From NCBI GenBank assembly GCA_030765585.1, contig JAVCCJ010000061.1, positions 1-44,072 of the forward strand: a DNA stretch of 44,072 nt. The letters run 5' to 3'. Each line of letters opens with the position of its first letter. Position 1 is the first letter of the stretch. Source of the DNA: Candidatus Zapsychrus exili (GTDB lineage Bacteria > Omnitrophota > Gorgyraeia > Zapsychrales > Zapsychraceae). Of this stretch, positions 4,080 to 13,050 are shown piece by piece. The position numbers were made by a program, and so were the translations under genes. The notes under the pieces are model-generated. The model worked only from the letters and a program-made list of their open reading frames with translations. It was not told the DNA's origin and searched no databases.

Positions 4080-4709
4080 TTATTCTAGGAGTTTACTCGC
4101 GTGGGTGGCTGCATCTATTATTTCATTTACAACTTTTACAGATTCCTCAATAATTTCTTTATCTGTTCTATTTTTTACTAAACCATCTTCAATATTATCT
4201 CTATAATTCTCACATTTATTAATCATTATTCCCAAAAGATTAGCTATATTATGCTTCATCTTTGAAAAGTTATCTTTGTCTTGAACATTTGGTTCATTTT
4301 GAGGATAACCGCTTTTTATGTATTCTTTACCTAAAACCTTACATAATGTTTCTTTAAGCGTTTTTAATGGTATTGGTTTAAGCAAAATCTCGCTCACATC
4401 GTATCTTGCGATATCTTCTCTTAAATTCTTGTTATCTATATCTCCTGTCATTACAATAAATTTTATATACTTATCATATTCTCTTACACCTGATAAAACA
4501 TCTATTCCGCTTATATCATTCATTATCAAATCCAATAAAACCACATCTGGTCTCATTCTTTTTATAAACTCTAAAGCTTGTTTTCCGTTTGTGGCTACAG
4601 CTACTTCGTATCCGCTTCTGCTTAAATTAGTTTTTAATATGTCGCATACATCTATTTCATCATCAACAACAAGTATTTTTTGCTTTTCATGATTCATAGT
4701 GAACTCCAT
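4080..4709 (-). CDS. Response regulator with C-terminal DHp (HisKA)-like helical hairpin and no ATPase domain
   Basis: Receiver motifs VVDDE, LLDLIM, MTG and KP. C-terminal ~65 aa with an H-box-like KHNIANLLGIM followed by two amphipathic helices. Confidence 0.85.
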   Translation of the reverse strand: MEFTMNHEKQKILVVDDEIDVCDILKTNLSRSGYEVAVATNGKQALEFIKRMRPDVVLLDLIMNDISGIDVLSGVREYDKYIKFIVMTGDIDNKNLREDIARYDVSEILLKPIPLKTLKETLCKVLGKEYIKSGYPQNEPNVQDKDNFSKMKHNIANLLGIMINKCENYRDNIEDGLVKNRTDKEIIEESVKVVNEIIDAATHASKLLE

Positions 4710-4833: not shown

Positions 4834-5064
4834 TTAGCTCAAACATCCAGTAAGGGTCAATTCGTGCTGATCTGAAGCTTCAAATGATTCGGGAGATATG
4901 TATCTTTCAAAAGCTCCATACCTTTTTGTCACTTCAAACGCTTCTTCTTTTTTATCTTGTGACAAAAGAGTTATTATTTGACGTATATGCTTGCCCTTAT
5001 CTAAACTAACCATAACTTTTAAACTTCCTTTGTTTTTATCGCTCATTACAAGTAAAACTCTCAT
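4834..5064 (-). CDS. Hypothetical 76-aa protein
   Basis: Strong AAAGGAGG RBS and a near-consensus promoter directly upstream; no recognisable domain. Confidence 0.75.
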   Translation of the reverse strand: MRVLLVMSDKNKGSLKVMVSLDKGKHIRQIITLLSQDKKEEAFEVTKRYGAFERYISPESFEASDQHELTLTGCLS

Positions 5065-5244: not shown

Positions 5245-5273
5245 TTGAATTTATTTAATTAACATTGTATAAT
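5245..5273 (+). promoter_or_regulatory. Sigma70 promoter giving a probable leaderless mRNA for the HTH-cupin gene
   Basis: TTGAAT (5245-5250), 17 nt, TATAAT (5268-5273), 6 nt, ATG (5280); no SD sequence. Confidence 0.7.
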
Positions 5274-5279
5274 CATATT

Positions 5280-5834
5280 ATGAAGCTTTATGAAAAAATA
5301 AATGAAACGCTAGCAAACCGAAGCTTAAAAATTATCAACCTACACAGAAAAATAGTTGATAGTTTTGGATCTGAAGCGATAAGCCACACAACTCTTTATA
5401 GAGCTTTAACTGGAAAATCAAGTCTTCGCGAATCTTCTATATTTCAAATAGCAACAGCACTTGAAATTAAAACATCAGAGCTTAAAAAGAACACTGAAGT
5501 TCAAGATAAATTTAGCATATTTGAATATAATGATAATGCCTATCTTGAGATATCAAATGATTTACTTGAATTCTTACCTGCTAAACTTGTTATTAAGCCT
5601 TTAGGTAGAACAGAAATCCTACAAGATCCGCAAGAAAAAGGTGAATTTTATAAATGGAGTTTTGGACTAAAAGGAGAGATTGTTTGTACTATAATATTTG
5701 ATGACAAAGCGGAGAAGCATACTATAGGCAAAAATGATACATTTACCTTTAACAGTACAAATAAACATTATTACGAAAATACAACAAATAAAACCGCATC
5801 AGCTATTGTTGTTCAAAATCCAAAGTATCTGTAG
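5280..5834 (+). CDS. XRE-like HTH plus cupin transcriptional regulator
   Basis: HTH-like ISHTTLYRALTG...IFQIATALEIKTSEL and C-terminal cupin GLKGEI...GKNDTFTFNSTNKHYYEN. ATG 5280 is preferred over TTG 5265, which overlaps the -10 box. Confidence 0.85.
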   Translation: MKLYEKINETLANRSLKIINLHRKIVDSFGSEAISHTTLYRALTGKSSLRESSIFQIATALEIKTSELKKNTEVQDKFSIFEYNDNAYLEISNDLLEFLPAKLVIKPLGRTEILQDPQEKGEFYKWSFGLKGEIVCTIIFDDKAEKHTIGKNDTFTFNSTNKHYYENTTNKTASAIVVQNPKYL

Positions 5835-6225
5835 ATTCTTTTCTAAGACTCAACTTTCCTTTACTCTCTAAAATTAATGCAACCTTCTCTTTAAGTACTT
5901 TAAGAGATATTGGTTTTGGCATATATTCTACTTCAAGATCGATTAATTTATTTGCCATCTCCGACGAATCCCACTTTGTTACAACTATTATTGCAATCGA
6001 CGCGTAAAGCTCTTTTGCTCGTTCTAAAACTTCTTGACCGCTTATCCCTGGCATAGTTATGTCTGATATCAAAATATCATATTCTTTTAACTCTAATTTT
6101 TCTATTGCCTTGTAACCGTTATCCGCATCTGCTATCTCACAAACTATTCTATTTGCAAGATATTCTCTTATATTTTCTCTATTTTCTTTCTCATCATCAA
6201 CAATAAGTATTTTTGCAATATTCAT
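5803..6225 (-). CDS. Single-domain response regulator
   Basis: IVDDE, ISDITMPG, VT and KP motifs; AGGAGG RBS. The 3' end overlaps the convergent HTH-cupin gene by 32 bp. Confidence 0.9.
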   Translation of the reverse strand: MNIAKILIVDDEKENRENIREYLANRIVCEIADADNGYKAIEKLELKEYDILISDITMPGISGQEVLERAKELYASIAIIVVTKWDSSEMANKLIDLEVEYMPKPISLKVLKEKVALILESKGKLSLRKESTDTLDFEQQ

Positions 6226-6250: not shown

Positions 6251-6637
6251 TTAGACTTCTTGTTTCTCTGTATTTAAAAGTCTTTTAACTTCTAAGCCCA
6301 CAGTTGACTCCAAATAGGTTATATTAATAGGCTTTTCAACATAGTCATCTGCCCCAAGAAGCATGGCTTCTTTTTTTACAGAATCTTCTGCCGCGCAAGT
6401 TATTATTATAACCTTAGATTCTTTGCTGACCTCTTTTATCCTTACAAGAGCCTCTATGCCATTCATTGTGCCCATTCTTATATCAAGTAAAATAATATCA
6501 GGTTTCTCTACTTGAGTAATTGCAATTCCATCATAAGCATTATAGGCCGTAAAGACCTCCAAGCCCCTTGAAACAAAAAAATCTTTTAAATGTTCTACCG
6601 TGTCTTTCTCGTCGTCAATTATCAATAATTTAATCAT
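6251..6637 (-). CDS. Single-domain response regulator
   Basis: IIDDE, LLDIRMG, IT and KP motifs. Confidence 0.92.
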   Translation of the reverse strand: MIKLLIIDDEKDTVEHLKDFFVSRGLEVFTAYNAYDGIAITQVEKPDIILLDIRMGTMNGIEALVRIKEVSKESKVIIITCAAEDSVKKEAMLLGADDYVEKPINITYLESTVGLEVKRLLNTEKQEV

Positions 6638-6657: not shown

Positions 6658-6921
6658 TTATTGTTGCTCTATATCCTTATCAGGGTCAATGCTTTGATAT
6701 ATACACTTTTTAAGTGGTATCATAATTTTATCTGCGCTCATTGCATATCCTTCTATTTTCTTTAAAGATTCTTTTATTTTGTTTAATTCATCTTTTAAAT
6801 TCTCTTTTGAAACAGCATCAATATCAGTATTTTCTATCATATCTGCTACAACACTCGAACTTATCGTTATCTTATTATGCCAATTACCTATATCATGAAA
6901 CATATTTTTTATTGTTGTCAT
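6658..6921 (-). CDS. Stand-alone DHp (HisKA-like) protein, putative histidine phosphotransferase or kinase modulator
   Basis: FHDIGNWHNKITI H-box; ungapped manual alignment to the DHp of the 724-aa kinase gives 17/66 identities. AGGAGG RBS. Confidence 0.75.
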   Translation of the reverse strand: MTTIKNMFHDIGNWHNKITISSSVVADMIENTDIDAVSKENLKDELNKIKESLKKIEGYAMSADKIMIPLKKCIYQSIDPDKDIEQQ

Positions 6922-6933
6922 AACACCTCCTAT

Positions 6934-7302
6934 TTATCCATTAGCTGCATCTTTTATTATACATTTAATATCTTCTATTTTTATAGGCTTTGTAATAAAT
7001 TTATAAGCTCCGAAACTATTAGCTTCTTCTTCGTATTCATCCTTATATCCCGAAATAATTATAAATTTTGTATTAGGGAACGAACTCTTAACTTGTTTTA
7101 AAACTTCCATTCCACTCACTTCATCTGCTAGCTGTATATCCAAAAAAACTACGTCTGGTTTTTCTAAATTAATTATCTCTATCGCTTCTCTGCCTTTAGT
7201 TGTTGTTAATACATTATTAAAACCATTAAACTCAAAATAATCCTTTAACATATCTAAAATATCCACTTCGTCTTCTACCAACAATACTTTTAAATTCTCC
7301 AC
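6934..7302 (-). CDS. Single-domain response regulator
   Basis: LVEDE, FLDIQLAD, ISG and KP motifs; GTG start with an AAGGA RBS. Confidence 0.92.
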   Translation of the reverse strand: MENLKVLLVEDEVDILDMLKDYFEFNGFNNVLTTTKGREAIEIINLEKPDVVFLDIQLADEVSGMEVLKQVKSSFPNTKFIIISGYKDEYEEEANSFGAYKFITKPIKIEDIKCIIKDAANG

Positions 7303-7359: not shown

Positions 7360-9477
7360 TTAAATCGCTCTAGGTAAAGTTATAGTAACTATTGTCCACT
7401 CTCCACTCTTAGAATCAACATTTAACGTACCTTTATTCGCCAATAATAGATGGTACACCATATTTATCCCCATACCAGTACCTTTCTTACTCCCTTTTGT
7501 CGTATAAAAAGGTACCAATACCTTGTCGAGCTCGTCTTTTGTCATGCCTATACCATTATCTTTTATTTCTATTTTTATAATATCACCCATTATTTCAGAC
7601 ATAATTATTATCTCTGGCTGATAGCCCTGGTTATTTTGGTTCTCTTTCTTTATTTCCATCGCATCACAACTATTATCAAGAGCATTATATACAATGTCTT
7701 GTAAGGTTGAATAGTTTGCCCAAATTTGATTGCTAGTATTATATTCTGTTATCAAATTATATTGCAACCTCGGATGTTTAACCGCAACTAAACTCATACT
7801 CGACTTTACTACTTCATCTAATGATATGCTTTGAGGAGCTATATCTGTCTTAGCGTAATTCTTTATTGCCTCTGTTATTTCAGTACCTCGCATGGCGCTT
7901 TTAGTCATTCTTTCTACATTCTCTCTAATCTCTTTTATTATTTCTTCAGAGACTTTCCCCTCTTTTATGTTGTCTAATAATTCCAATAAAGAGTCTCCAC
8001 CTAACGATATAACATTAAGCCTATTATACATTTGATGCGCTATGCCAGATCCAAGAGCGCCTAAAGAACGAAGTCTACTTTCATGAAACTGCTGCGCTAA
8101 ATCTTTTTTGCTTTCTTCGTAAAACACAGCATTTTCAATTGAAGTAGCTGCTTGTTTAGCTAAAATATCAAAAACAGTTAAATCATCTTCTGAATATATT
8201 TGCCTTGATTTCTTTTTGCCCATTGTTATTAAAGCTAGAACTCTCTTGTCAGAGAATATAGGCACAATAAGTTCGGCATCAATACTTATAAAAGAATCAA
8301 GAAAATCATTATTTATAATTTTCCCTTGCTGCTCGTACTTTCCTTTTAACTCTTCAATTATTATTGGATTTTGATTATTTATAAAATAATTTATTAGTTC
8401 TGAATCAGATTTTATCGACTTTATTTTTTTATCTGCTGTTGTTGCTCTAAGAGCATACGATTCCTCAACCTCATCAAATAAATATATAGAGCAGTGCTCA
8501 ATTTTTATAGACCTATACAATGTATGAATTATAAAATCCAACAAATGTTTAAGCTCTTTTATCTTAGCCATTCCTAAAGATGCACTTTTAAGTGTTTTTT
8601 GATATTGTTTTTGTTCTGATAAGATACGCGCTTCAGCCCGTCGCTGAAGGAATATATATAAATACGGGCCAGCGGTTGCTAAAACAGCCATGGTTAAAAC
8701 AGGAATAAGCCAAAGTCCTACTCCAAACAATTTAAACCCAACATAAAATGGTATTCCAAGAACTAAGGTATAGACTAGAATAAAAATCGTAGCTCGAGAT
8801 ATAACAAGCTTAATATCCATTAAACGCAATCTAATAATTGCATAAGCTATAATACATAGATGCACCGATACTAAAATATTACCAACCGGAGGTACTGGTA
8901 TATTAAACCAAAGGGGGAAATTAGTTATACCTCCAGACCAACCTATAATTGTAGCTATAAGAAGATATTTTATTTGCGTTCTATGCAAACCATCAGATAT
9001 CCTTAAATACCTTAATAGTAAATATACTGTTCGGAGAACTATAAAAAACCATATAGCTAAAAAATATCCAAAAAGATCGCCTGCATCAGGCCAATACTCA
9101 AAATAAAGCTTTTGGCTAACTCCTTTTATAAAATATCCAGTAAAGCATAGACACATAGAAACAACGCCAAATGCATACGCAAAATAAATTTCTACCTTTC
9201 TGTCTTTAGACAGTCTTAACATCGCATAGATATAGTGAAGATAACAAATAGGTATAAAAACTCCAGCTGCCATTAAAACTTTAGACCACAAAAAAGCATG
9301 GATATAATTATCCGATATTTGCCAAAAGAAATAAGCAATACTCCAAGCAGAAACACTTAAACAAAAAATCCCGTAAGTTATATTTGCAAGAGCCTTTTTA
9401 CTGCGAGAAAAAACAAATATTCCCAAAGAAAAGCTAGTAAATAAATTAATTAATGAACTTACTGCCCAAAAAGTCAT
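7360..9477 (-). CDS. Membrane sensor histidine kinase (HisKA_7TM-like sensor, GAF, DHp, HATPase)
   Basis: Multi-TM N-terminus, GAF ending LAKQAATSIENA, H-box AHQMYNRL, N-box NALDNSCDA, G1 DNGIGM, F-box PFYTTK and G2 GTGMG. Start moved from TTG 9492 to ATG 9477 by alignment with the paralogue (MTFWAVSSLIN vs MNFLALSGLVN). Confidence 0.92.
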   Translation of the reverse strand: MTFWAVSSLINLFTSFSLGIFVFSRSKKALANITYGIFCLSVSAWSIAYFFWQISDNYIHAFLWSKVLMAAGVFIPICYLHYIYAMLRLSKDRKVEIYFAYAFGVVSMCLCFTGYFIKGVSQKLYFEYWPDAGDLFGYFLAIWFFIVLRTVYLLLRYLRISDGLHRTQIKYLLIATIIGWSGGITNFPLWFNIPVPPVGNILVSVHLCIIAYAIIRLRLMDIKLVISRATIFILVYTLVLGIPFYVGFKLFGVGLWLIPVLTMAVLATAGPYLYIFLQRRAEARILSEQKQYQKTLKSASLGMAKIKELKHLLDFIIHTLYRSIKIEHCSIYLFDEVEESYALRATTADKKIKSIKSDSELINYFINNQNPIIIEELKGKYEQQGKIINNDFLDSFISIDAELIVPIFSDKRVLALITMGKKKSRQIYSEDDLTVFDILAKQAATSIENAVFYEESKKDLAQQFHESRLRSLGALGSGIAHQMYNRLNVISLGGDSLLELLDNIKEGKVSEEIIKEIRENVERMTKSAMRGTEITEAIKNYAKTDIAPQSISLDEVVKSSMSLVAVKHPRLQYNLITEYNTSNQIWANYSTLQDIVYNALDNSCDAMEIKKENQNNQGYQPEIIIMSEIMGDIIKIEIKDNGIGMTKDELDKVLVPFYTTKGSKKGTGMGINMVYHLLLANKGTLNVDSKSGEWTIVTITLPRAI

Positions 9478-9510
9478 ATGTCTAATATGCAAATTTTATT
9501 GTTTTATAAG

Positions 9511-11685
9511 TTAAGATTTTTCTATCTGTTCTTTTGTAGCTTTCGGTAATATTATTAAAACTCTAGTCCATTCATTATATTTTGAATCAATTTCCAATGT
9601 TCCCTTATTAGACTGCAAAAGTTGATATGCCATATTCATACCCATACCAGTCCCTTTCTGCGCACCTTTTGTGGTAAAGAAAGGGACTAGAACTTTTTCA
9701 AGCTCATCTTTTGTCATGCCTACACCATTGTCTTTTATTTCTATCTTTATTTTAGAACCCAAAAATTCTGACTTGATTTTTATAATAGGCTTATAATTTT
9801 CTAACAACAAATCACCTTCATTAATTTTCTTTGTTTTTATTTTCATCGCATCACAACTATTATCCAATGCATTATATATAACATCTTGCAGAGTAGAATA
9901 ATTAGCCCATATATAATCATCTGCTTTATAATCTTCTATAATTTCATATTCAAATCTTGGATGTTTGACCCTAACCAAAGACTCACTTGATTTTATTATT
10001 TTATCCAACGATATAGCTTGAGTGGCTATGTCTGTCCTTGCATAATTCTTTATTGCCTCTGTTATCTCAGTACCGCGCACAGCACTATTAGTCATTTTAT
10101 CCACATTCTTTTGAACCTGTTCAAACATTTTTAATAGCTCTTCTTTAGATGCGCTATCTTTGTTTATGCTAGATAACATGTCCAACAATACACTTCCTCC
10201 TAATGATATTACATTTAACCTATTATACATTTGATGAGCTATACCAGAACCAAGGGCCCCTAAAGACTTCAAACGACTTTCATGAAAACGCTGAGCTAAA
10301 TCTTTCTTACTCTCCTCATAAAACATGGCATTTTCTATAGCTAAAGCAGCTTGATTACCTAAAATAGAAAAAACCATAACATCATCATTGGAATATATTT
10401 GACCAGTCTTCTTCTTTCCTAACATTATTAAAGACAATACCTTGTCATTTACAAACAATGGTATTATTAGCTCAACATTGAGCTCTAACAATATACTCAA
10501 CAATTCCTTGCTTGCAGATGACTCATTATATTCATGTTTTCTCTTGAATTCTTCAACAACAAGAGTATCTTTTTGACTTTCTATATATTTTATTAAATCT
10601 GAATTTGACAAAATTTCTTTAATATTCTTGTTAACTCTCTCCCCTCTTGAGGCGCTTAAAACATAAGATTCTGTAATTGCATCCATCAAATAAACAGAAC
10701 AATATTCTATTCTTACAGACCTTGTTAATATGTGAACAATAAGCGATAATAAATGATTTAAATCTTTTATACTTGCCATGCCTACAGATGCTTGCTGAAG
10801 AGTTTGCTGATATTGTTTTTGCTCTGCAAGAAGTCTATTCTCAGCTCTACCTTGTAAAAATATATACATATAAGGTCCAATCGTAGCCAATACAGCCATT
10901 ATTGAAACTGGTAAAAGCCAAAGCCCCACACCAAACAACTTTAATCCTATTCCAAAAGGTACGCCAAGAACCAAAGTATATACTGAAACAAAAATTGTGG
11001 CACGAGACAATACTAATTTAATATCCAAAAGCCTATATTTAACGATAGAGTAACAAACAATGCCAACATATAAACTAATAAATATATTAAAGTGTGGGGG
11101 GAAATATATCTTATACCACATCGGCCAATTTGTAGCTCCGCCTATGAATCCAAAAATAGCCGAAATCAAGAAATATTTTATTTGTTCGTGTTTAAGGCCA
11201 ACCGTATTAAACAATCCCTTTAAAAGCAAATAGAATCCATATAAACATTGCCAAGACCAAAAAAGCAAATAGAAATGAAACGAAATATTAGGAATAGGCC
11301 AAAACCCAAGGTTATATCTTGGCTCTAGCTCAGAGAATAAAAAAGAGCTCAAGCTTAACAAAGCAAATACTATATTAACTAAATAATATATACGAATTTC
11401 AATTTTTTTATCTTTTAAAATATCAAGAAATGCAAAAATAAAATGCAGATAAGTAACATTAATAAAAATAATACCTAGTGTTAATGTTTTAAACCAAAAA
11501 AGTGCCTGTTCTGCATTGTCAGACAATTGCCAAAATAAATATCCTATGCTATATACGCAAACGCTTAAATTAAGATAAAAGAAAGTTTGATTCTTTATAT
11601 TCCGAGAATTTTTAGAAAATACTATTAGACCAGCAAAAAGACTTGCTGTAGCATTGACCAAGCCTGATAAAGCTAAAAAATTCAT
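9511..11685 (-). CDS. Membrane sensor histidine kinase, tandem paralogue of 7360-9477
   Basis: Same architecture and shared motifs: GGxTNxPxW in the membrane domain, AHQMYNRLNVISLGG, DNGVGM, PFFTTK and GTGMG. Confidence 0.93.
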   Translation of the reverse strand: MNFLALSGLVNATASLFAGLIVFSKNSRNIKNQTFFYLNLSVCVYSIGYLFWQLSDNAEQALFWFKTLTLGIIFINVTYLHFIFAFLDILKDKKIEIRIYYLVNIVFALLSLSSFLFSELEPRYNLGFWPIPNISFHFYLLFWSWQCLYGFYLLLKGLFNTVGLKHEQIKYFLISAIFGFIGGATNWPMWYKIYFPPHFNIFISLYVGIVCYSIVKYRLLDIKLVLSRATIFVSVYTLVLGVPFGIGLKLFGVGLWLLPVSIMAVLATIGPYMYIFLQGRAENRLLAEQKQYQQTLQQASVGMASIKDLNHLLSLIVHILTRSVRIEYCSVYLMDAITESYVLSASRGERVNKNIKEILSNSDLIKYIESQKDTLVVEEFKRKHEYNESSASKELLSILLELNVELIIPLFVNDKVLSLIMLGKKKTGQIYSNDDVMVFSILGNQAALAIENAMFYEESKKDLAQRFHESRLKSLGALGSGIAHQMYNRLNVISLGGSVLLDMLSSINKDSASKEELLKMFEQVQKNVDKMTNSAVRGTEITEAIKNYARTDIATQAISLDKIIKSSESLVRVKHPRFEYEIIEDYKADDYIWANYSTLQDVIYNALDNSCDAMKIKTKKINEGDLLLENYKPIIKIKSEFLGSKIKIEIKDNGVGMTKDELEKVLVPFFTTKGAQKGTGMGMNMAYQLLQSNKGTLEIDSKYNEWTRVLIILPKATKEQIEKS

Positions 11686-11688
11686 ATC

Positions 11689-13050
11689 CTAATCCTGCAT
11701 TCTCTTAATTTCATAGAAAACTATTTTGCCTGTTTTATCTAATGATGTTTTTATGTCCAGCTTATGTCCTAGGCCATACAATAGATTCAGCATGTACTCA
11801 TTATCTCTTGGAACAAACTCCCAATCGCAAAACCACATTGGTGGCAAAGGGGCGAATGGATCTTTCTTCTCGTCTTTTATGCTCAACAACAAAACTCCAT
11901 TCTTTGACAGCAGACTAATACAGAAATTAATAAAAACTTTTAGCAATCTATCTGGAAAATAGTCTATTAATCCAATGCTATATATAATATCTTTACTTCC
12001 GAATAATTCTAAATAATGCTTATTCTTTGCATTAAATTTAAGGACATTTTCTTTAAAATATTTAAACCTTACCTTTTTGTTTTTTATAGAATTCAATGTC
12101 TTTTTCGAAAATTTAATTGCTTCGTCATCAAAATCAACAAGCCCAAAAGAAATCTTACCTGAATATTTTACCCTCTTAGATTCTAGAATATCCTTTATTT
12201 CTCTACTAGGACCACATGCCAAATTTAATATATCTAAATTTTTTGCTTTTGAAGCATTTATTAGTTTTAAAAGAGAATTTCCCATAAAATCTTTACGTTT
12301 TCTAACAGCTTCAGCATATGGACTTTTTAAAAAATACCTATCAAAACATTCTCCAAACCCAGAAGATAATATTTCCTCATTATACACTATCTCTAGCATT
12401 CTATAATCCCCAGGATATCCTCTTGGCTTTTCGTAACCTCTGCGAACAATATTACTTCTATATGCCAAATATCCCGCACAAGCTCTAAAACATTTCTTGA
12501 TCTTTTTTATCAACAATTTATTTTTTAAATTTTTTGATAATTTATCAGCCTTCATTAAAATTTCATCAGTATATTTTGTTAATTGATCAACATTTCTTTT
12601 AGAAACTTTTTTCGCTCTTTTTATCCCTACAACAATGCTCTCTGCATTACTAATATATTCCTTTACATCATTCAGAAAAAATCTCTCTATTAATTTTATA
12701 ATTTTCTTATCACAAATATCTTTTATTATTGGATCTATGCTCTCATTAAGAAAAACTTCTCTCAATGCGTCCATATTATTTTTTTCTAATTTTACAAAAC
12801 ACACGCCATGCAAAACACCTTGTCTTTCTACAAGTTTTTTACTCCATAAAACTTTAAAATTAACTTTAAGATTCTTATTACCAGGCGCTTCTATGTAACA
12901 TTTTGCTTTCGAAGCTATGGATTGCTCAACAAGTATTTTCATACCGCTTTCGCTTATATCTATTATCTCTGCAACCACGTTTGGTGAAAATCTAATAGGA
13001 AGCGATACATTTATTCTGGGAACAACTCTTCTGTTTAAACTTATTTTCAA
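11689..13050 (-). CDS. PilZ domain fused to a PhcB-like class I SAM-dependent methyltransferase
   Basis: PilZ motifs RVVPR (RxxxR) and DISESG (DxSxxG). KPRGYPGDYRML motif recalled from PhcB-like proteins, SAM motif I LNLACGP, LVDFD and YSIGLIDYF. TTG start with a GGAGG RBS. Confidence 0.82.
   Translation of the reverse strand: MKISLNRRVVPRINVSLPIRFSPNVVAEIIDISESGMKILVEQSIASKAKCYIEAPGNKNLKVNFKVLWSKKLVERQGVLHGVCFVKLEKNNMDALREVFLNESIDPIIKDICDKKIIKLIERFFLNDVKEYISNAESIVVGIKRAKKVSKRNVDQLTKYTDEILMKADKLSKNLKNKLLIKKIKKCFRACAGYLAYRSNIVRRGYEKPRGYPGDYRMLEIVYNEEILSSGFGECFDRYFLKSPYAEAVRKRKDFMGNSLLKLINASKAKNLDILNLACGPSREIKDILESKRVKYSGKISFGLVDFDDEAIKFSKKTLNSIKNKKVRFKYFKENVLKFNAKNKHYLELFGSKDIIYSIGLIDYFPDRLLKVFINFCISLLSKNGVLLLSIKDEKKDPFAPLPPMWFCDWEFVPRDNEYMLNLLYGLGHKLDIKTSLDKTGKIVFYEIKRMQD

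Follow-up and report, generated by a model that had tools for sequence, protein, structure and literature searches.

The gene at positions 6,658 to 6,921 of the window, the 44,072-nucleotide stretch of the Candidatus Zapsychrus exili contig analysed here, encodes a conserved kinase-derived helical hairpin with a near-invariant histidine, an asparagine four residues beyond it (H+4) and no catalytic or pseudo-catalytic domain. With a probability of roughly 55%, this protein, F1, is a homodimeric histidine phosphotransferase made of a DHp only, Spo0B- or ChpT-like but lacking the ATPase-like domain. Among the three roles offered in the preliminary description, phosphotransferase is the best supported, its activity being predicted, followed by phosphatase or phosphate sink. 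What that description missed is that F1 is one of three HxxxN families, all devoid of a catalytic domain, in a conserved cassette. New here are a variant DHp-type phosphotransfer protein and its cassette, in which as many as three families of kinase-less hairpins occur, each with a putative function. The features of the locus are collected in Table 1.

Table 1. Features of the F1 cassette in the window (positions of the whole stretch)
Feature	Coordinates	Strand	Properties and proposed role	Basis
F1	6658..6921	-	Stand-alone DHp-like protein, 87 aa	Alignment, homologues, AF2, profile comparison
F1 His9 codon	6895-6897	-
F1 Asn13 codon	6883-6885	-
F1 ribosome-binding site	6926..6931	-	AGGAGG, 4 nt before ATG	Sequence
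REC-U	6934..7302	-	Single-domain receiver; Asp55, Ser-Gly-Tyr FATGUY-like motif, Lys105; probably takes phosphate from the kinase and passes it to F1
REC-A	6251..6637	-	Single-domain receiver; intact D/T/K, T+1 Cys; candidate acceptor
REC-B	5803..6225	-	Single-domain receiver; intact D/T/K, T+1 Lys, T+2 Trp; candidate acceptor
Kinase 2	7360..9492	-	HisKA_7TM-GAF-DHp-HATPase_c; H-box HQxxNR without proline	Domain scan, sequence
Kinase 1	9511..11685	-	HisKA_7TM-GAF-DHp (His484)-HATPase_c; partner in the earlier F1 comparison	Domain scan, alignment
PilZ-methyltransferase fusion	11689..13050	-	PilZ plus methyltransferase-like protein; in related cassettes it again precedes the kinase
Cupin regulator	5265..5834	+	Regulator-like protein, C-terminal cupin (weak Cupin_2 match); recurrent on the opposite strand; candidate output
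76-aa protein	4834..5064	-	No known family; cassette-recurrent
REC-F3	4080..4709	-	Receiver with a CA-less DHp-like hairpin fused to its C-terminus (F3; His153, Asn157)

A DHp-like hairpin related to the neighbouring kinases

As first described, F1 has a ribosome-binding site of its own and lies between two receiver genes. It follows REC-U by 12 nt and precedes REC-A by 20 nt, and its start methionine is common to its homologues. A promoter scan gave results at chance level (63 versus 56.2 +/- 8.7). The 17 identities over 66 gap-free positions reported earlier between F1 and the DHp of a neighbouring kinase were reproduced exactly; the alignment spans F1 residues 8-73 and the DHp of kinase 1, a protein of 724 aa, and has a BLOSUM62 score of 72. 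None of 150 shuffles, which could be placed without gaps over 66 residues wherever they fitted the kinase best, reached these values; the highest were 16 identities and a score of 42 (mean score 12.5, sd 7.4). Kinase 1 is also the best non-self match of F1 in its own genome (E 0.004), the family HMM also finds 7TM-GAF kinases, matching them in the DHp, and a profile-profile comparison of the F1 family with four related kinase DHp regions returned a probability of 94.8 and E of 5e-8 over 73 columns. At the DNA level 94 of 198 positions are identical (47%), with 27, 43 and 24 matches at codon positions 1, 2 and 3, respectively; an identity this low and highest at codon position 2 indicates an old divergence of F1 and kinase and not a recent copy.

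AlphaFold2 (AF2) predicts the expected helical hairpin for F1, with helices at residues 4-31 and 39-77 and a pLDDT of 94.6. Only about ten residues follow helix 2 in the 87-aa protein, and no degenerate CA-like domain is present at the C-terminus. A natural F1 tandem (P0014) is predicted to fold as a four-helix bundle (pTM 0.78), the dimer architecture expected of a DHp. The H-box of the window copy, H-D-I-G-N, matches the HisKA pattern H-E/D-x-x-T/N. At E up to 1, F1 has no match to Pfam HisKA (PF00512), nor do the flanking kinases, and HisKA is absent among the 25 Pfam families listed, out of 77, for 38 F1 members. The Pfam families SPOB_a, HPTransfase and Hpt (PF01627) gave no match to F1 either. 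Scans of Pfam, NCBIfam and PDB sequences returned noise only, the best solved-structure match (E 0.036) being a designed protein. When the hairpin and the tandem were searched by fold, generic coiled coils and designed bundles came up, with no DHp among the matches listed; the best match of the tandem is 6EGC, a single-chain version of a designed hairpin dimer (Z 17.6, rmsd 2.1, 143 aligned residues).

The window copy carries Trp at H+5 and a second His at H+6 (W14-H15, 6877-6882 on the minus strand), in what is normally a buried position. Across 103 distinct F1 sequences, H+6 is His in 54 and Leu in 36, and Pro is not among the commonest residues at H+5. W14-H15 may give the dimer axis a core that is polar or binds metal.

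Conservation of the active-site residues

A phmmer search with F1 over 1.84 billion representatives returned 43 matches at E up to 0.001, mostly of 76-126 aa. Alignment A1 comprises 38 of these; the five left out are two tandems, a fragment, a fusion to a receiver and a repeat protein matched falsely. His9 and likewise Asn13 are invariant in all 38. When phmmer and locus-derived sequences are pooled, the histidine is found in 101 of the 103 distinct sequences, the exceptions being one truncated sequence and one Ala in a second adjacent copy, while Asn occurs at H+4 in 98 and at H+7 in 89. Since the 34 metagenome loci in the pool were retrieved with a pattern requiring His and Asn, they are not independent evidence of conservation, for which the phmmer and genome-HMM sets are the main support. 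The conservation peaks of the family are F-1, H, N+4 and N+7, clustered around the histidine. Of the shared identities listed earlier, His, N+4 and N+7 are thus family-conserved, but 'SV' and 'DM' are not family consensus, the corresponding residues being G+14 in 76/103 and E+18 in 53/103.

The same pattern bears on a competing account in which F1 specialises in removing phosphate from receivers, as a phosphatase or a sink. As a dimer, the DHp would dock on a phosphorylated receiver, where Asn13 would drain the phosphate with His9 serving as base or transient acceptor. This is the main rival, though a minority reading. The isolated DHp of EnvZ has phosphatase activity, a point in its favor. 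In HisKA kinases H+1 is needed for autokinase activity and N(H+4) is reported as needed for phosphatase activity (PMC3510030). With N+4 as the phosphatase residue, the F1 pattern fits a phosphatase equally well: a retained N+4 beside a variable H+1, acidic in 51/103 and non-acidic in 52/103, is the signature of phosphatase kept and kinase lost. The variable H+1 also counts toward the phosphotransferase, an argument weakened by the related parent kinases, which carry Gln there in 20 of 33. RedE provides a precedent, accepting phosphate from one receiver and dephosphorylating another, and a model for a mixed version (PMC2755868). On the other side, the histidine of F1 is kept more strictly than the asparagine, whereas the available text on RedE describes a phosphatase that needs no His in vitro (PMC2755868). 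Furthermore, a reversible phosphotransferase conserves both residues too, and receivers of distinct classes flank F1 on both sides.

Selection and distribution

Purifying selection is evident in the 11 closest F1 pairs, where dN/dS is 0.07-0.19 (dS 0.16-0.96). In all 53 pairs with 0.05<dS<1.5 the ratio is below 1, with a median of 0.46 and the distant pairs near saturation; values of 0.36-0.57 for distant pairs, including every pair with the window copy, were disregarded on that account. The window F1 has no close relative, and the selection was measured on other family members. These data, together with homologues that are intact and full-length, speak against a decaying kinase fragment, one of three outcomes that the preliminary description had named as fatal to its reading; the other two, lack of a predicted helical hairpin and of a conserved His, did not occur either. 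A functionless fragment of a duplicated kinase could explain the patchy distribution given below and would suit a window copy that has no close relative, yet the low ratios in the closest pairs, an intact family of uniform length, conserved synteny and a single tree group (SH-aLRT 94 in a quick tree) make such decay very improbable and, for the F1 family, effectively refute it.

F1 belongs to a family of stand-alone proteins of about 85 aa, probably from Omnitrophota, a phylum assignment made because the nearest Atlas clusters, unnamed proteins of 85-86 aa, are labelled Candidatus Omnitrophota on few recorded members. Atlas look-alikes labelled Bdellovibrionota and Thermomicrobiota were also seen. 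The F1 HMM matched 32 of 301 genomes of the phylum at E up to 1e-5, many of these being kinase matches, as well as 44 of 401 genomes in the class and 17 of 168 in the order, some again kinase matches, so the distribution is patchy. A word-indexed homologue search with the single F1 protein found only itself. A search for longer forms found none, which is weak evidence, fusions having turned up by other routes.

The cassette and its kinases

In its fullest form the cassette consists of a 7TM-GAF kinase, REC-U, F1, REC-D, F2, REC-A and REC-B, with the cupin regulator on the opposite strand, the 76-aa protein and REC-F3. The window holds this form minus REC-D and F2. Neighbours were counted for 64 distinct stand-alone F1 matches, related genomes among them not being independent. 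A receiver lies directly upstream of F1 in 44 of the 61 loci with an upstream gene in view, directly downstream in 43 of 58 stand-alone loci, and on at least one side in 48 of the 55 loci with both sides known. A kinase gene occurs at most three genes upstream in 39/61. In some lineages the partner encoded downstream is a REC-GAF-HD-GYP protein, and one locus continues with genes for a pilus/type II secretion ATPase and a PilC-like protein. The genome of the window has 30 receiver matches and one Hpt match (on contig C91), with no Hpt match at the F1 locus.

F1 copies lacking an adjacent receiver make up the remaining 7 of 55 loci with both sides known (for example L012, L105, L110, L112 and L115). 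In L105, L110, L112 and L115, F1-like genes stand without a two-component neighbour between genes that read, by sequence, as flavodoxin-like and CutA/DsbD-like. Another copy (L015:168-422) is beside a relaxase/helicase-like gene, named in the same way, and this suggests that it may be carried on a mobile element. In many genomes the genes for the 76-aa protein and the cupin regulator-like protein are found again, head to head with the cassette, and both are possible cassette outputs; the Atlas had no usable match for the 76-aa protein.

The two kinases of the window, which Pfam HisKA does not detect, have an atypical H-box with His-Gln and no Pro at H+5. A further reading casts F1 as the DHp portion of a split kinase. 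It would receive phosphate in trans from a catalytic domain, either free-standing or that of kinase 1 or 2, and then donate it to receivers. Split HisKA/HATPase kinases have been proposed (PMC3591291), and the window F1 shares their H-D-x-x-N motif. Against such an arrangement, which is improbable, no free-standing HATPase gene lies beside F1 in the loci inspected, and the H+1 residue is non-acidic in about half of the family. In the genome of the window, which is 96% complete and fragmented, two short HATPase_c frames stand at contig ends, and a third matches only partially, within a frame of 60 codons.

Origin of the hairpins

Statements on groups rest on a quick tree of 80 columns. In this tree F1 forms its single group among the proline-less HQxxNR kinases (SH-aLRT 84), while the F3 group (98) joins kinases with an HEIGNPLNI H-box (93). 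The HMMs divide in the same way: above 15 bits, the F3 HMM matches 9/9 HEIGNPLNI kinases and 0/29 proline-less ones, and the F1 HMM matches 15/29 proline-less and 1/9 HEIGNPLNI kinases. Sequence relationships of this kind suggest that the catalytic domain was lost separately at least twice, F3 apparently deriving from a kinase clade other than that of F1.

The tree is also informative about the dominant-negative role, in which F1 would be an inhibitory or modulating heterodimer partner of the neighbouring kinases. RetS/GacS heterodimers are the model for such a role. As F1 groups with the HQxxNR kinase type that adjoins it in the window, dimer-core compatibility is conceivable. Nevertheless, the window F1 clusters with other F1s and apart from its neighbour kinases, and over 34 kinase-F1 pairs the first helix of F1 has a mean BLOSUM62 score of 49 against other F1s versus 11 against its own neighbour kinase. 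F1 is kept beside HEIGNP-type kinases of another clade in 10 of the 34, an inhibitor would have no need of an invariant His, and the existence of single-chain F1-F1 tandems indicates self-pairing. Because F1 is conserved independently of the adjacent kinase type, and does not track it across these pairs or in the quick tree, heterodimerization is quite improbable, and this part of the preliminary description is disfavoured. At the receiver-facing positions F1 scores 14.2 against other F1s and 0.4 against its own neighbour kinase. Mimicry by F1 of specificity residues in the kinase next to it was considered and rejected; that kinase scored above other kinases only slightly (23/34) and far below the F1-F1 scores.

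Receivers around F1

The phospho-accepting Asp is kept in 90 of 90 distinct locus receivers and in all five receivers of the window. Two classes differ next to the conserved Thr: the REC-U class has a small T+1 residue in 44/45 and an aromatic T+2 in 41/45, and the REC-D class has a bulky T+1 (Trp, Tyr or Arg) in 21/22. T+1 controls access to the receiver phosphorylation site (PMC8510515). The REC-U pattern resembles the FATGUY motif described for relay intermediates, the meaning of which the authors leave unresolved in the available text (PMC9981736), but it is also near the common receiver consensus.

A predicted complex of two F1 chains with REC-U scored 0.55 versus 0.00 for the best control, with contact agreement between runs of at least 91% and partner pLDDT of at least 83; no interface was returned. 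Of 157 solved pairs, 116 attain the mark for this score, as do 2 of 215 mismatched pairs, but those that attain it at 0.60 or below are only 18 of the 157 solved pairs and both mismatches. The model lends slight support to binding of F1 to its upstream receiver, and the pass may be due to likeness to solved DHp-receiver complexes.

Further hairpins without a catalytic domain

F2 is a second stand-alone HxxxN hairpin family of about 88 aa with an extra N-terminal helix, in which His32 and Asn36 are invariant (22/22). Some members stand alone, others form single-chain tandems in which one half is degenerate, and F2 is also found joined to PAS-GGDEF-HD-GYP (examples are L064:8679-8951, L120:3956-4450 and L118:3189-5981). 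F2 matches were found in 27 of 168 genomes of the order and none in the genome of the window. The F3 hairpin retains His and N+4 in 18 of 19 matches, the exception being a truncated piece, and neither the F2 nor the F3 hairpin has a Pfam match. Two short F3-like pieces without an intact His motif are present elsewhere in the genome of the window (C94:8800-8958 and C54:11554-11766 of G000), adjoining a replication-initiator-like gene and a PAS protein gene, and by sequence they look like decayed copies.

Tandems bear on the role of the histidine. In all ten single-chain F2 tandems with both halves aligned, the N-terminal half is without HxxxN, the His itself being lost in five, and the C-terminal half keeps the motif, a pattern suggesting that HxxxN acts in catalysis and not in structure. 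Similarly, the F1 tandems P0014 and P0015 keep His in one half only. Fusions of F1 to a receiver are also found (P0035, L016, L057, L058, L060 and L133). Collectively, the conservation peaks, the motif loss in tandems and the intact receiver classes suggest that the F1 histidine is catalytic and faces a receiver.

Proposed phosphorelay and relation to known systems

In the phosphotransferase model, two F1 chains would form the four-helix bundle, the 7TM-GAF kinases would phosphorylate REC-U, and phosphorylated REC-U would hand its phosphate to His9. From there the phosphate would pass to downstream receivers, probably reversibly as in Spo0B. The acceptors could be REC-A and/or REC-B in the window, and REC-D, REC-REC or REC-GAF-HD-GYP proteins in relatives. 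Judging by the neighbouring genes, the final output may be c-di-GMP turnover, the cupin regulator or pilus genes. Gene order in the cassette does not establish pathway order. A more extended scheme, speculative and on balance doubtful, is a single His-Asp chain of unusual length running from the kinase through REC-U, F1, REC-D, F2 and REC-A/B to REC-F3, in which the independently derived hairpins would each serve their own receiver class, the bulky T+1 of REC-D might admit only CA-less partners, and the single-chain tandems would be HPt-like monomers with one active His.

The closest parallels are Spo0B of Bacillus and ChpT of Caulobacter and Brucella, both dimeric and of the DHp type. Like them, F1 is a kinase-derived His hairpin placed between receivers and devoid of ATP-binding activity. 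A C-terminal domain persists in Spo0B. In ChpT the CA domain has degenerated but is still present (PMC9981736), whereas the 87-aa F1 is hairpin only. Since F1 lacks the C-terminal CA-like domain of Spo0B, ChpT, PhyT and RedE, it would act like these families without being a member of them. The KinA-Spo0F-Spo0B-Spo0A logic likewise uses a single-domain intermediate receiver (PMC5898713, PMC9981736). In the RedCDEF four-component system of Myxococcus xanthus, an operon contains a kinase, a receiver, a kinase-like His protein and a stand-alone receiver, as in the F1 cassette, and RedE accepts phosphate from a receiver and, according to the available text, cannot autophosphorylate (PMC2755868). 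The difference is that RedE is a kinase-like protein with phosphatase activity on RedF, whereas F1 is hairpin-only and its cassette can contain as many as three modules of that kind. In the alphaproteobacterial stress response, PhyT/PhyK-type proteins with SdrG/MrrA present a phosphotransferase from a degenerated kinase fed by a FATGUY single-domain receiver (PMC5898713); these differ from F1 in being of the HWE/HisKA_2 (HRxxN) type, membrane-anchored and in retaining a degenerate ATPase domain.

HPt proteins (PF01627) are, like F1, small all-helical His carriers between receivers. The single-chain F1 and F2 tandems converge on their one-chain four-helix bundle with one active His, but F1 has no Hpt match and its ancestry is a kinase DHp. 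P2CS files HisKA without HATPase or receiver as a phosphotransfer protein (PMC2716373; a HisKA-only bin is also used in PMC4618731 and PMC9953108), and 1556 of 42417 HisKA proteins (3.66%) are without HATPase (PMC3591291). Unlike F1, the P2CS 'HisKA phosphotransfer proteins' are a computational bin that needs a match to the HisKA profile; as HisKA is absent among the families listed for the F1 members, the families described here are invisible to it. A 2026 preprint that introduces new HisKA-like profiles deals, in its available text, with HATPase-retaining proteins only and leaves Omnitrophota unmentioned (10.64898/2026.02.27.708494). In a literature search that covered few subscription papers, neither a description of the F1-F3 families nor a characterised hairpin-only phosphotransferase was found.

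Implications

If the phosphotransferase reading of F1 is true, a bare DHp hairpin suffices for a natural phosphorelay step. It would complete a series running from kinase through pseudo-kinase (ChpT, PhyT, RedE) and hairpin only to single-chain bundle, and it would open a direct way to test what the residual CA-like domain does in Spo0B and ChpT. Two-component censuses based on Pfam HisKA or Hpt would then overlook whole relay layers. Small, soluble and easily expressed, F1-type proteins may provide minimal relay parts and a means of studying signalling in a phylum that is largely uncultured.
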